From: Spirochaetia bacterium
GTDB taxonomy: Bacteria > Spirochaetota > Spirochaetia > UBA9216
NCBI GenBank assembly: GCA_965140585.1
Contig: OZ223269.1
Span: forward strand, 224,001-288,000
Reading direction: 5' to 3'
DNA length: 64,000 nt
Shown here: positions 7,670 through 44,725 of the stretch, in pieces
Position numbering within the stretch: the first letter of the stretch is position 1
Layout of the letters: the number at the start of each line of letters is the position of its first letter
Notes under the pieces: model-generated
Seen by the model: only the letters and a program-made list of their open reading frames with translations
The model's database searches: none
What the model was told of the DNA's origin: nothing
Made by a program: the position numbers and the translations under genes

Positions 7670-7929
7670 ATTCGTAGTTAGGCGGATCTACAAATTTGTA
7701 AGTATAATAGTTAATTTTGATACCACATAAAACCCCGAATACCTGTTATAGTATTGGTGAAGTTAACCAATTAGACAGACTATATCTAAATTATTTTTGA
7801 AGCTACACCCTCTTATGAGGATAGTTATAAAATTTATTTTCTTTATCATGTTGTCTAAGTTATGAAAATGTAATATACGATTACGTAAAATATATACAGA
7901 CGGCAATATAGTATTAAGGAGTGATTTAA

Positions 7930-8925
7930 ATGATTAAAGCCAATTATGAATCAGATTGGAACAAAAGAAAAGAAATTCCACATGAAGAACTCTATACAAT
8001 TCCTCATGTAACTTTCGAAGAGTACTCAGAGAAGCTGAAAAATTGTCTGAAAATGACAAGAAAGAACGGAATCCTTGAGGCAAGAATGCACACACACGGC
8101 GGACCTGTACAGTGGAGTGCCGAGCTTCATCAGGGCCTTCATTACTTTTTTGACTGGGCAGGTAGAGATCCCGACAATGAGGTAATTATTCTTGGTGGTA
8201 TCGGACCTGATACTTTCAAGGGAATCGGTAGAATCAACAGGGAAACCGGCGAGTGGATGCCCTGTCGTGAATACGGTTCTGAACCAGACGAATCATGGAA
8301 GATGTACGACTACCAGTACTACGATGGAACAAATGACATCGAAGGACAAATTTTTGACCTTGAAGTTCCAACTATTGGTGTCTGGACTGGTGCTTCCTAC
8401 CATACTGACCTCGTTCTTTTCAGCGACATCACACTCGCTACAAAGGATGCATGGACAACTGAAATGCACTTCAGAACAAACATGGTTCCCGGTGACGGTA
8501 TCCAGATTGCATGGAGAGAGCTGATGGGAAGAAAGAGATTTGCTTATGCAGAGCTCACTGGTCAGATCATCACAGCAAAAATGGCTCTTGAATATGGTAT
8601 GATTAACGAAATCTGTGAAGATGTTGATGCTGCATACAAGAGAGCATGGGAAATTGCTGAACTTATCATGCATGCTGCAGGTAGAACAACAAGAAGAATT
8701 ACAACTCAGATTCTCAGAAAGCCATGGAAAGAAGACATTGCAAATGAACTTAGAGCTAGCTTTGCTTCTGAAATGTGGGTTACTGCAACTGACCATTCAC
8801 CGCATGAGGCAAAATACTGGGACGATGCTCATGAAGAAGCAAGACTCGTTCTGGCTGCAGAAAAAGAGGGTAAGGTTGTTAGACCAAAAATCGGCGGTGG
8901 AGAATTCGAAGTCGCTATCAAATAA
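7930..8925 (+). CDS. Crotonase-superfamily protein, 6-oxocamphor hydrolase (beta-diketone hydrolase)-like
   Basis: FEEYS, HT.GGP..W....H, D.DNEVIIL.G.G, EVP.I, H(TD), HF...VPGDG...W, LTGQ, RAWE.A recall the Rhodococcus OCH pattern. Confidence 0.75.
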   Translation: MIKANYESDWNKRKEIPHEELYTIPHVTFEEYSEKLKNCLKMTRKNGILEARMHTHGGPVQWSAELHQGLHYFFDWAGRDPDNEVIILGGIGPDTFKGIGRINRETGEWMPCREYGSEPDESWKMYDYQYYDGTNDIEGQIFDLEVPTIGVWTGASYHTDLVLFSDITLATKDAWTTEMHFRTNMVPGDGIQIAWRELMGRKRFAYAELTGQIITAKMALEYGMINEICEDVDAAYKRAWEIAELIMHAAGRTTRRITTQILRKPWKEDIANELRASFASEMWVTATDHSPHEAKYWDDAHEEARLVLAAEKEGKVVRPKIGGGEFEVAIK

Positions 8926-8945
8926 TCATTTATTTATGATTATTC

Positions 8946-8978
8946 AGACCGTCAGTCCAATGGGCTGGCGGTTTTTTT
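8946..8978 (+). terminator. Rho-independent terminator
   Basis: GACCGTCAGTCC-AAT-GGGCTGGCGGTT plus T tract right after the stop. Confidence 0.85.
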
Positions 8979-9030
8979 ATACACAGATATGATAATTGCT
9001 AATCATTTAGGTTAAAAAACAGAAATTGAC

Positions 9031-9101
9031 AAAAAAAGGCTGCCCGGGTAACACCCGAACAGCCGGGAAAATCCTGAAAGAGGAGAATCAGAATTTTCCT
9101 T
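9031..9101 (-). ncRNA. Candidate ~71-nt small RNA: hairpin with anti-SD loop plus intrinsic terminator
   Basis: Two 12-bp stems whose three non-Watson-Crick pairs are all G-U on the minus strand only; loop UUCUCCUCUU; U7 tail; promoter directly upstream; no minus-strand CDS to terminate. Confidence 0.7.
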
Positions 9102-9107
9102 ATTAAG

Positions 9108-9136
9108 ATTATATAACCTAGGACACTGCACTGCAA
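9108..9136 (-). promoter_or_regulatory. Sigma70-type promoter for the candidate sRNA
   Basis: TTGCAG-17 nt-TATAAT, placing the TSS near 9101. Confidence 0.7.
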
Positions 9137-9185
9137 TACACTAAATGTTCAAAATAAATTGAAATATCTTTTGTTGATTATAAAA

Positions 9186-9202
9186 AATATACTCAGTATA
9201 TT
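9186..9202. promoter_or_regulatory. Perfect palindrome, candidate repressor operator
   Basis: AATATACT-C-AGTATATT, 20 bp upstream of the 9223 start. Confidence 0.5.
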
Positions 9203-9222
9203 GATAGAATAGGAGTATCGTT

Positions 9223-9585
9223 TTGCTTATACCTGCAATTATTTCAATTACTCTGGCTCTGGTCTTTTATACGATCGGAGTATGGGGTGAAAAACTTTCG
9301 GGCGGTCTTAAGGTTTGGAACTTATCAATGTTCTGGGCCGGGCTTGTTTTTGATACTGCCGGAACAGCAGCCATGTCTGCCGTTGCAGGTGCGATAAGCC
9401 TTAATCTGCATGCTTTAACCGGTTTAATAGCAATAATACTTATGATTTTTCATGCCTTATGGGCTACTGTTGTTATCATCAAAAAAAATGAAAAAATGAA
9501 GAAAACCTTTCACCGATTCAGTATTATTGTCTGGATAATCTGGCTGATACCTTATATTTCCGGCGCTATGCTTAATATGGGGTGA
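9223..9585 (+). CDS. Small 4-TM membrane protein (TIGR03987/HsmA-like)
   Basis: ALVFYTIGVW.E, GL.FD..GT..M, H..TG..A..LM..HA.WA, FHRFS..VW..WLIPY; AGGAG RBS with TTG start. Confidence 0.75.
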   Translation: MLIPAIISITLALVFYTIGVWGEKLSGGLKVWNLSMFWAGLVFDTAGTAAMSAVAGAISLNLHALTGLIAIILMIFHALWATVVIIKKNEKMKKTFHRFSIIVWIIWLIPYISGAMLNMG

Positions 9586-11780: not shown

Positions 11781-11788
11781 TGATATTA

Positions 11789-11823
11789 GGGGACTGACTT
11801 ACTTTAAGTCGGTCCTTTTTTTT
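11789..11823 (+). terminator. Rho-independent terminator
   Basis: GGACTGACTTA-CTT-TAAGTCGGTCC followed by T8. Confidence 0.85.
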
Positions 11824-11879
11824 GCAATTTCATTTTATTGACAGGAGATTCTTATTAAAATAAATTAAACTAATTAAGC

Positions 11880-12340
11880 GGTACTTATATTGCTGATATT
11901 AGTGATAAAATCCTTAATATCACTGATGGAAACAAGAATACTGCTTGAACCAAAGCTGCAGAACTGGCAGCAGAAAGAATTACCGATAAGGAACTTGATT
12001 CGATAATAAGTGCGGATAGAATTTTTAGTTCACACGTATTAGAAACTGCCATATCCGTTGAGTATGATTTTTTTCCACCTTGAAATTGTAGGAATCTCTA
12101 AGAGTCCAGTCCTGATCTCACTTTCTTCCTTATATAACAAGGCAACTGATAGAGTTGTGGAAGAGTTACGGCGATGATAACCCGGTTTCATCAGCATCGA
12201 GAATAGAATCAACCGTTTTAAGACATCAGCAGATTATTAACTGCCTCGCAGAAAAAAACAGCGGAAAAGCAGGTGTTGTGATGAAGCAGCATCTTGACGG
12301 CAGTATGAAGTATATAAGTCATTTAATTATAAGAGGAGAA
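11880..12340 (+). pseudogene. FadR/GntR regulator remnant (FCD domain only; boundaries approximate)
   Basis: Frameshifted fragments LMETRILLEP/AELAAERITDKEL, D..FHLEI..ISKSPVL, H..I..CL....A...M..HL; no HTH found. Confidence 0.7.
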
Positions 12341-12343
12341 GTT

Positions 12344-13166
12344 ATGAGTGTTATTGAGGAAATGTTAGGGTATAAGGGCCGGATTGTTGCTATCACAGGC
12401 GGAGCAGGTGTAATTTCCGGTTTTATGGCTGAAGGTTTTCTGCAGGCCGGTGCAAATGTATTATTGTGTGGCCGTAATATTATTAACCTTACAACCGCCT
12501 CTTAAAAAATTAAAGAGCGGAATCCTGATGCCCAGGAGAAGTTATCTATAATTAAGGCTGATTGTAATGTAAAAGATGAAATCTATGCAGTCTTATAGTT
12601 CAGTCTGTGAAAAAAATCCTGCTCCTGATTTACTGATAAACGGTGCAAGAGGAAACAGGGAAAAGTGTGTTTTTAATAAACAGGATATAAAGCTCTTTAT
12701 GGAGATTGTGGAGATGAATCTGATAGGAGGTATGGTTCTGCCGGTACAGGTTTTTACTTCTGAGTGGATAAAGCAGGGAATAAAGGGCAGTATTATCAAC
12801 ATTTCTTCATTGACGGCATACAAGGGATTATCAGGTACATGGACGCATAATGCTGCAAAGTCTGCTGTTGTGAATCTAACTCAGGGACTGGCCAAAGAAT
12901 TTGCAGAGAGAGGCATACGTGTTAATTTAATTTCATCGGGATTTTTTGTGGGTAAACAGAATCATGATCTTCTTATTAAGCAGGACAGTTCTCTCTTGCT
13001 GACAGATAGGGTCCGAATGATTATTGAGAGAACCCCTATGGGCAGATTTGGAGACTTTGATGAGCTGAAGGGAACGGTTCTTTTCCTGGGAAGCAATAAG
13101 GCTTCCGGGTTTGTTACAGGTAACGATATACCCGTGGACGGCGGTTTTTTATCGGATAATATTTAG
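12344..13166 (+). pseudogene. SDR oxidoreductase pseudogene (mannonate/gluconate-5-dehydrogenase-like)
   Basis: TGGAGVIS Rossmann motif; TAA at 12503; frameshift near 12590; catalytic YxxxK reads HNAAK; RTPMGRFG. Confidence 0.85.
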
Positions 13167-13177
13167 GAAAGCAGGCT

Positions 13178-13960
13178 GTGTTAAAAATAAAATTTGAATT
13201 GCTGAAACGCTATATTTCAAAAAACTTTCAGGCTTACGGACTTTCAGAGGAAGACGCTGAAATCACTGCTGACGTTCTTATTACAGCTGGTAAGCGTAGG
13301 AATACCTTCTCACAGTATTGCGAGGTTCTGGCGCTATCTTAACGGCATTGAGGGGGAATTATGCTTCCTTCGTCAATACCTGAGGTTGTACGGGAAACTT
13401 CCGCTTCGATTGTGTACGACGCTAAAGGTGCGCTCGGAGCTCCTGTAAGCTTTTAGGCAATGGAAACCGTTATCAGAAAGGCGGCTTCCTGCGGAACTGC
13501 CTTTACTTCTGTTAAAGATTCAAATCATTTCGGGATAGCCGAATATTACGCAATTATGGCGCTGTAGCATGATATGATTGGGATCTGCATGACAAATACA
13601 GCCGCACTTGGTGTTCCGACATTTGGCAGGGATGTGATGTACGGTACCAATCCGATATCTATTGCAGTATCAGCGGATGAGGAAACATCAACCAGAGTTG
13701 CTCATTTTTTCGGGGCAATGCGTATTGATATGTTCAGGGATATAGAAGCCTTTAAAAAGTATATGGACTGTATGCTAAGGGAATTGCGGATTGCACGGCC
13801 GGCTGAAGGAGCTGACAGAGTATATTATGCGGGCTTAAAAGAAAAGCTGAATGAGATTGAATCAATGAAATCAGGAATCAGTTTATATAAGAAGGTTTGG
13901 GCTTCGGTGACAGTCTTTGGTGAGAAAAAAAGGATTCCTATTCCCCAATTTTTGAGCTGA
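13178..13960 (+). pseudogene. Ldh_2 family (malate/L-lactate/2,3-diketogulonate reductase type) pseudogene
   Basis: RGIPSH, SNHFG, GTNPISIA motifs split by frameshifts and TAG stops; apparent internal deletion after ADEE. Confidence 0.85.
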
Positions 13961-13989
13961 TTTTATAATTTGATATTATGGTTTGTGAT

Positions 13990-14042
13990 AAAAAAAGGCT
14001 GTCCAACATCAGTTTTTACCTGATTATCGGACAGCCTTTTTT
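13990..14042. terminator. Bidirectional terminator
   Basis: AAAAAAGGCTGTCC...GGACAGCCTTTTTT between convergent genes. Confidence 0.8.
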
Positions 14043-14059
14043 GTTTCGTAAACAGTTAA

Positions 14060-15097: not shown

Positions 15098-15140
15098 AAG
15101 ATCCTCCTCTTATATTATATTTCATTTAAAATCATTTCTG

Positions 15141-44606: not shown

Positions 44607-44725
44607 TTAAATCTCTCCTTATAGAATTCCGCCATGGATGGCGGGTAATGGAGTGAAGTTTGTTAAAACTTCAAAATGAAAAAAATACAAGGATGTGTTT
44701 TTTTCATTCCTCCTTATTCCTTGTA

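Follow-up and report, generated by a model that had tools for sequence, protein, structure and literature searches.

A candidate small RNA gene with a loop-presented anti-Shine-Dalgarno motif in a genus of Spirochaetia

A two-hairpin unit between two plus-strand genes

The window, that is, the whole 64,000-nt stretch of DNA that was analyzed, belongs to a genome of 4.85 Mb (G000), which we compared with that of a genus-mate (G001). Between a crotonase-like gene and a gene for an HsmA-family membrane protein (hsmA), both on the plus strand, there is a short minus-strand unit at 9031-9136 that was originally predicted, from the letters of the DNA, to be a self-contained small RNA (sRNA) gene. 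Downstream of hsmA, on the same strand, are LemA and then two TPM-domain genes. The features of the locus are as follows:

7930..8925, plus strand: crotonase/enoyl-CoA hydratase-like gene (Pfam ECH_1, NCBIfam), convergent with the RNA unit
8946..8974, plus strand: intrinsic terminator of the crotonase-like gene itself (terminator scan)
9031..9064, minus strand: intrinsic terminator with a 12-bp stem (8 G-C and 2 G-U pairs), a 3-nt loop and U7 (terminator scan)
9031..9101, minus strand: predicted transcript of about 68-71 nt (placed from promoter and terminator geometry)
9066..9099, minus strand: hairpin 1, with a 12-bp stem including one G-U pair and a 10-nt loop (sequence and fold)
9078..9087, minus strand: loop of hairpin 1, UUCUCCUCUU, 10 nt, all pyrimidine (sequence; same in G001)
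9108..9113, minus strand: -10 element TATAAT (sequence)
9131..9136, minus strand: -35-like element TTGCAG (sequence), overlapping a direct repeat TGCAG-TGCAG
9223..9585, plus strand: gene for an HsmA-family membrane protein, TTG start (NCBIfam TIGR03987, 162.7 bits), divergent from the RNA unit

Read along the minus strand, the unit opens with the -35-like hexamer (9136-9131), which has 3 of 6 consensus bases, and continues after a 17-nt spacer with a -10 (9113-9108) that is a perfect consensus; both hexamers are the same in G001. The letters and the spacing of the originally proposed promoter are therefore right, although its -35 is only half consensus. Our promoter scan, which needs at least 4 of 6 matching -35 bases, did not call this promoter because its -35 falls below that number, and its assignment therefore rests on the perfect -10 and the correct spacing. 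RNA synthesis would start at A9101 or A9100, 7-8 nt past the -10, and would end within the U tract. The direct repeat, which reads TGCAG-TGCAG-TG at 9120-9136 and is unchanged in G001, takes in the -35-like hexamer and the first part of the spacer, and could be the operator of some regulator. A sigma-54 promoter with TTGCA as its -12 element was rejected by eye, since there is no GG at the -24 position.

The list of open reading frames (ORFs) includes a 45-codon frame on the same strand at 9136-8999, and the locus could in principle encode a small protein. We find this hardly credible. The frame takes its TTG start from the -35 hexamer and has no ribosome-binding site (RBS) ahead of it, the terminator lies inside it, it has no Pfam match, and the two extra T in the U tract of G001 shift its frame. 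The 45-aa ORF was excluded as a gene on the strength of this frameshift, the internal terminator and the coincidence of start codon and -35 hexamer.

Hairpin 1 begins about 9 nt past the -10 and consists of GGAAAAUUCUGA (9099-9088), the loop UUCUCCUCUU (9087-9078) and UCAGGAUUUUCC (9077-9066). The terminator follows after one base (C9065), in the order GGCUGUUCGGGU-GUU-ACCCGGGCAGCC (9064-9038), and ends in U7 (9037-9031), which is U9 in G001. This succession of hairpin, loop, single C and terminator had been described from the letters, and both sequence and fold agree with it in every part. The minus-strand RNA folds to exactly these two hairpins, with an energy of -36.7 kcal/mol (z = -6.9) that was equaled by none of 200 shuffled sequences, and the two-hairpin structure is predicted to make up 0.73 of the minus-strand ensemble. 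The plus strand folds less well, with -27.6 kcal/mol (z = -4.8) and interrupted stems, because the three non-Watson-Crick pairs (one in hairpin 1 and two in the terminator) are all G-U on the minus strand and turn into A-C on the other, as had also been pointed out. The sequence observation behind the original prediction is confirmed.

The second hairpin, with its 12-bp G+C-rich stem, 3-nt loop and U7, resembles an ordinary Rho-independent terminator. Unlike an ordinary terminator, however, it has no same-strand gene ending upstream of it; what lies there instead is a -10 of its own and a separate long hairpin. It had been argued that this terminator serves no coding sequence, and this is what we found: the two flanking genes run along the plus strand, where the upstream one ends in a terminator of its own at 8946-8974. 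Among 96 strong intergenic terminators in G000, 9 lack a same-strand ORF of at least 80 aa within 300 nt upstream, and the terminator of the unit is one of these. The other 8, at seven loci, include one FMN riboswitch (L229, C1:509199, 95.5 bits), and no tRNA was found at any of them. The remaining seven orphan terminators in G000 (C1:434771, C3:36634, C7:153690, C7:256354, C7:599283, C9:278184 and C9:278234; L228 and L230-L234), the last two of which are in tandem, have no Rfam or tRNA assignment and could represent additional RNA genes.

For hsmA, the promoter scan places the best plus-strand candidates at 9159-9202 (e.g., TTGATT-17-TATATT at 9174-9202). They would stand back to back with the candidate sRNA promoter without overlapping it, the -35 elements being 38 nt apart. 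In a different view of the locus, it is not transcribed as a unit but is 1) a site at which a protein binds or recombination occurs at the DNA level, 2) the relic of a rearrangement, or 3) part of the plus-strand 5' leader of hsmA, the minus-strand RNA then being cis-antisense. Such a view can draw on a perfect TTGACA on the plus strand at about 9023-9028, on the ability of both hairpins to form on that strand too, if less well, and on the appearance of the locus as a lineage-specific junction. We nevertheless regard it as quite improbable. The plus strand carries three A-C mismatches, to which a change in G001 adds a fourth, and has no U tract after either hairpin; past the TTGACA there is no acceptable -10 (TAACAC, 3 of 6, without the final T), while better hsmA promoter candidates lie downstream; and a single-copy sequence is no REP-type element.

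Occurrence and conservation of the unit

The unit is present once in the whole of G000. The original prediction had named many dispersed copies lacking promoters, as in a REP-like repeat, as a finding that would speak against an RNA gene, and the single match in G000 shows that the unit is not a repeat of this kind. When the 116-nt unit was searched by BLAST (E up to 0.01) in 61 genomes including G000, six genomes gave matches, but only those in G000 and G001 cover the whole unit; the leftovers are five pieces of 23-35 nt in four genomes (G043, G004, G036 and, twice, G018). A covariance model, R1, built from these two copies matches both in full, with 105.4 bits in G000 and 108.8 bits in G001. 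The family, which is also the order, comprises 11 genomes in our collection including these two, and 9 of the 11 have an R1 match at E up to 1, the best one beyond the two carriers reaching 34.7 bits. At the level of the class, 13 of 151 genomes have a match at E up to 0.001, and again none beyond G000 and G001 exceeds 34.7 bits. All 14 alignments that we inspected involve the terminator half only, and the R1 matches in other genomes are similar GGCUG...CAGCC-U7 terminators. Weaker matches inside G000 (at most 25.4 bits) include one that was inspected (L033), which aligns through the terminator half only. The expectation of homologs in related genomes is borne out in the genus-mate but no further, as neither the 9 remaining family genomes nor the 149 other genomes sampled from the class yielded the full element.

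Searches for the unit in plasmid and phage collections (distant blastn mode) gave no match. In brief, a scan with an 18-mer made of the loop and its 4 closing pairs found 48 loci in species-representative genomes and at least 119 stretches in metagenome contigs, the latter dominated by one unrelated gut-bacterial coding sequence; among the matches listed, only L080, from Spirochaetia and in the G001 form, has both hairpin and terminator. Within G000, CTCCT occurs 7,695 times, and at 37 sites it lies in the loop of a hairpin with 8 or more contiguous closing pairs. The other 36 of these sites were read by eye, and none has a 12-bp stem with an adjacent terminator.

The Rfam/Infernal scan proposed as a check on the original prediction places the unit in no family. 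There is no match at 9031-9136 at gathering thresholds (Rfam 15, including RsaE and cuckoo-related models), and the best sub-threshold matches at E up to 10, YenS (21.2 bits, gathering 80) and RsaH (19.6 bits, gathering 50), both run through the terminator.

A separate observation from the R1 search concerns G072:C1:2259483-2260085, in another genome of the class, where four equal matches of 30 bits each are exactly 185 nt apart. This array looks like a tandem repeat with a terminator-like hairpin.

Orthologs of the crotonase-like gene are present in 4 of the 11 family genomes, as are those of hsmA (4 of 11). In G010 and G008, the crotonase-like gene is followed by a terminator and another same-strand gene, and the element was not found there; nor was it found upstream of hsmA in G010 and G009. 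In these three inspected genomes of the neighboring genus (G010, G008 and G009), the crotonase-like gene and hsmA are not adjacent. We also noticed that every genome with the crotonase-like protein encodes it twice, the two copies being 68-70% identical (G000:C6:1060377-1061372, G010, G008 and G001; L012-L015).

G000 and G001 align over two blocks of the region, with identities of 89.4% and 88.8%, and share 91.8% identity in intergenic sequence. Between the crotonase-like gene and hsmA (8926-9222), they differ at ten positions at 8929-9025, in the length of the U tract at 9031, at 9067, at 9103, and at seven positions at 9142-9221. The 110 nt at 9032-9141, which begin just before the -35 and reach the U tract, contain 2 substitutions; the closest differences on either side are at 9025 and 9142, and the conserved block thus matches the -35-to-U-tract span. 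For 9031-9136, this amounts to 2 substitutions in 106 nt vs. 17 in 191 nt of flanking intergenic sequence (Fisher p = 0.023, or p = 0.053 once the change in U-tract length is counted). The transcribed 71 nt have 1 substitution, with 5.8-6.3 expected (Poisson P = 0.013-0.020). Equally conserved 106-nt windows make up 7.2% of all those in the aligned 37 kb, and among intergenic windows they number 97 of 427, with 79 in the block 7683-7761 and 18 at the unit. These figures give modest evidence of constraint on the span from the -35 to the U tract.

The only substitution within the RNA, C9067 -> T in G001, changes the second pair of hairpin 1 from G-C to G-U on the minus strand, and would be a mismatch on the plus strand. 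As a single paired position that changes between two carriers that are near-identical across the element, it lends the structure weak support.

The intergenic block at 7683-7851, upstream of the crotonase-like gene, has 3 differences from G001 (7732, 7735 and 7770), the rest of that spacer having 18. No significant RNA structure was found in this block (z = 0.18), and it may be a promoter or operator region.

The narrow distribution and the pattern of conservation can also be read in another way, namely, as a by-product or an insulator. A chance -10-like hexamer in the AT-rich divergent region beside the hsmA promoter would give rise to stray RNA, the terminator would shield the convergent crotonase-like gene from antisense transcription, hairpin 1 would be functionless, and the RNA itself would be noise or a recently born transcript without a role. 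The restriction of the unit to one genus, its absence from the orthologous positions in the neighboring genus, where the flanking genes are apart, and the weak -35 all agree with this, as do the existence nearby of a conserved intergenic block of similar strength without predicted structure (7683-7850) and the fact that no specific target emerges (see below). However, insulation has no need of a 12-bp hairpin with a 10-nt all-pyrimidine loop, the conserved block spans not only the terminator but also the promoter and hairpin 1, and the sole change in the RNA preserves its structure. We judge this explanation unlikely on the whole, though it is the strongest of the rivals and has to be taken seriously.

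The loop, the 16S tail and candidate targets

The 16S rRNA of G000 ends in GGATCACCTCCTTTCA, and its tail has a CUCCU core in common with the loop UUCUCCUCUU, in which this core is continued by pyrimidines on both sides. The loop has a predicted mean unpaired probability of 0.9997. Two RBSs had been named as possible partners. The first, AAGAGGAGAA at 12331-12340 (plus strand), lies 3 nt before an ATG and is complementary to the loop at 10 of 10 positions, exactly as proposed. The second, before dctP, had been placed at 15103-15112 with 9 of 10 pairs; the match exists, on the minus strand but one base away, as AAGAGGAGGA at 15102-15111, 4 nt before the start of the DctP-family gene, with a G-U as its tenth pair. 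dctP is the third gene of a dctQMP operon, and its site is conserved in G001. The calculated 10-bp duplexes between the loop and the two named sites have energies of -14.5 and -13.8 kcal/mol, compared with -9.4 and -13.1 kcal/mol for the 16S tail at these sites. Competition of the loop with the ribosome for Shine-Dalgarno sites is therefore physically reasonable, because the loop is predicted to be unpaired and its duplexes to be stronger than those of the 16S tail, and it is reasonable to consider the loop an anti-Shine-Dalgarno element.

Closer inspection gave no support for the two named sites as specific targets. The gene after the exact site, for a short-chain dehydrogenase, is broken into ORFs of 53 aa (12344-12505) and 196 aa (12576-13166), and the site itself lies in a 2.3-kb stretch (11786-14058) without DNA alignment to G001. 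The syntenic 40 kb of G001 contain neither another copy of the 10-mer nor a match to the 53-aa ORF. The same stretch also holds a C-terminal Ldh_2 fragment (13574-13960), and looks like a variable region that is decaying or affected by assembly errors. Matches to the loop with at most one mismatch number 5 in the window, while 7.2 are expected by chance, which agrees with the caution, voiced with the original prediction, that Shine-Dalgarno-like matches are common and that the named ones may be due to chance. Genome-wide, G000 contains 28 exact 10-mers, including the element itself, and 510 sites with one mismatch. About 90 sites are positioned as RBSs, by which we mean 9 or more Watson-Crick pairs, or every position paired once wobbles are allowed, 1-10 nt before the start of an ORF of at least 80 aa, the starts being ORF-based guesses. 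Support for the named targets is nil at the sequence level.

The nine best intact candidates among these sites precede genes for MarR, TetR, L23, S5, AFOR (aldehyde ferredoxin oxidoreductase), P-II, a metallo-beta-lactamase fold and two unknowns (Pfam), and no functional theme was found among the nine. Three of the intact sites pair at 10 of 10 positions, and two of these precede genes for MarR- and TetR-family regulators. All three would also pair in G001, where two are unchanged and the third has G in place of A, which leaves a G-U pair, but their surroundings are 89-96% identical anyway.

The missing coherent target set would be easier to accept if the RNA were expressed but acted through a protein, for instance by binding or titrating a protein that recognizes pyrimidine tracts, such as ribosomal protein S1, or another RNA-binding protein, or if it acted locally on the hsmA promoter with which its own promoter stands back to back. 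The anatomy and the conservation of the unit would suit this equally well. However, no protein partner is indicated. CsrA-titrating sRNAs of the CsrB/RsmZ type have several hairpins with GGA in their loops. CsrA is encoded in the genome, yet the minus-strand RNA has GGA only inside the stem of hairpin 1, its loop has no purine, and there is a single such hairpin; a CsrA-titrating sRNA was rejected on these grounds. We give action through a protein or on the neighboring promoter a small chance.

A candidate sRNA and its relation to known RNAs

Taken together, these findings lead us to prefer, tentatively and with somewhat less than even confidence, a young, genus-restricted sRNA gene that is independently transcribed from the minus strand, and whose loop pairs with RBSs to block initiation. 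At the sequence level, the unit is intergenic, has its own promoter and terminator and serves no coding gene, as is expected of a trans-encoded sRNA. The original claim of a stand-alone minus-strand RNA gene gains from the strand asymmetry, the orphan terminator, the perfect -10, the single copy and the conserved block, and is retained here as a candidate. The claim that the anti-Shine-Dalgarno loop acts as a translational repressor is upheld in part: the unpaired loop and its CUCCU core are in its favor, but the two targets put forward with it found no support as specific ones.

We infer transcription, the RNA ends, pairing with RBSs and every target from sequence, and the mechanism would run as follows. 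A sigma-70-type promoter with a perfect -10 and a weak -35 would start transcription at about 9101, and the intrinsic terminator would end it at 9031-9037, yielding a product of about 70 nt with two hairpins. Hairpin 1 would expose the unpaired 10-nt pyrimidine loop, which would mimic and extend the anti-Shine-Dalgarno core of the 16S rRNA, pair with purine-rich RBSs of the AAGAGGAGAA type on other mRNAs and thereby block 30S binding. By analogy with the loop-presented C/U-rich seeds of Gram-positive bacteria and alphaproteobacteria, it might do so independently of Hfq. Hfq was not found in a six-frame search of the 98.5%-complete genome, which fits a long, loop-presented seed. We consider the unit a plausible, uncatalogued candidate for the broad class of sRNAs that present an anti-Shine-Dalgarno seed in a loop.

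Two groups of characterized RNAs invite comparison. RsaE/RoxS-type sRNAs of Gram-positive bacteria are short, Hfq-independent and terminator-ended, and an exposed pyrimidine-rich motif in them pairs with Shine-Dalgarno regions; with seeds that are UCCC or CCCC, as a rule present twice, they form widely conserved families. The unit is likewise short and terminator-ended with an exposed pyrimidine-rich motif, but this motif is a single CUCCU-centered loop and is confined to one genus. At E up to 10, RsaE is absent from the sub-threshold Rfam matches, of which RsaH, aligned through the terminator, is the only one from Staphylococcus.

The second group is the cuckoo/alpha-r14 family (RSs0680a-d = CcsR1-4, SmelC397/NfeR1), which, in the passages of PMC4615179 that deal with it, consists of stand-alone alphaproteobacterial sRNAs with 2-4 adjacent hairpins, each bearing CCUCCUCCC in its loop, whose stems vary while the loop motif is kept, and which are thought to occlude RBSs (PMC4615179). 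As far as these passages describe the family, the unit resembles it in standing alone and in having a hairpin loop with a pyrimidine-only motif like an anti-Shine-Dalgarno sequence. It differs from the family thus described in having one motif hairpin, in the loop itself, which is UUCUCCUCUU and not CCUCCUCCC, and in its second hairpin, which is a terminator with a GUU loop; its host belongs to Spirochaetia and not to Alphaproteobacteria, and there is no Rfam match to the family at E up to 10. Since it differs in motif and phylum, has only one motif hairpin and gives no covariance-model match, the unit is, as far as its sequence tells, a member of neither the cuckoo/alpha-r14 family nor the C-rich-seed families of Firmicutes.

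One could go further and suppose a newly born regulatory RNA. In a genus in which Hfq is undetected, a local rearrangement would have joined the crotonase-like gene and hsmA, and from the new junction a minimal sRNA of two hairpins would have emerged, with a loop that out-competes the 16S tail at a subset of extended RBSs of the AAGAGGAGAA type. This fuller scenario is speculative, and we think it improbable as a whole. If it were true, an sRNA with a small, regulator-centered regulon would have arisen de novo. The scenario can point to the MarR- and TetR-family genes that follow two of the three intact, fully pairing sites, and to the divergent position of the RNA relative to hsmA. A counterpart of the HsmA family in Clostridioides difficile is described in PMC12541388, as far as its relevant passages go, as being controlled by a MarR-type regulator, HsmR (PMC12541388).

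If the unit is expressed, it would present a compact anti-Shine-Dalgarno seed in a loop, in a genome without detected Hfq, and, being confined to one genus, it would lend itself to the study of how sRNA genes arise. To our knowledge, the regulatory RNAs of free-living and uncultured spirochaetes are almost entirely unexplored. A search of the full-text literature for anti-Shine-Dalgarno, small RNA and spirochete gave no report whose title or abstract describes an RNA of this kind.

The window also contains another RNA, TD-2 (RF03162), at 44628-44712 on the plus strand, with 54.1 bits against a gathering threshold of 48.7; no other Rfam family reaches its gathering threshold in the window, and the match fits a spirochaete origin. 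According to the passage on it in PMC1950547, TD-2, a candidate structured RNA, was first described from Treponema denticola (PMC1950547).
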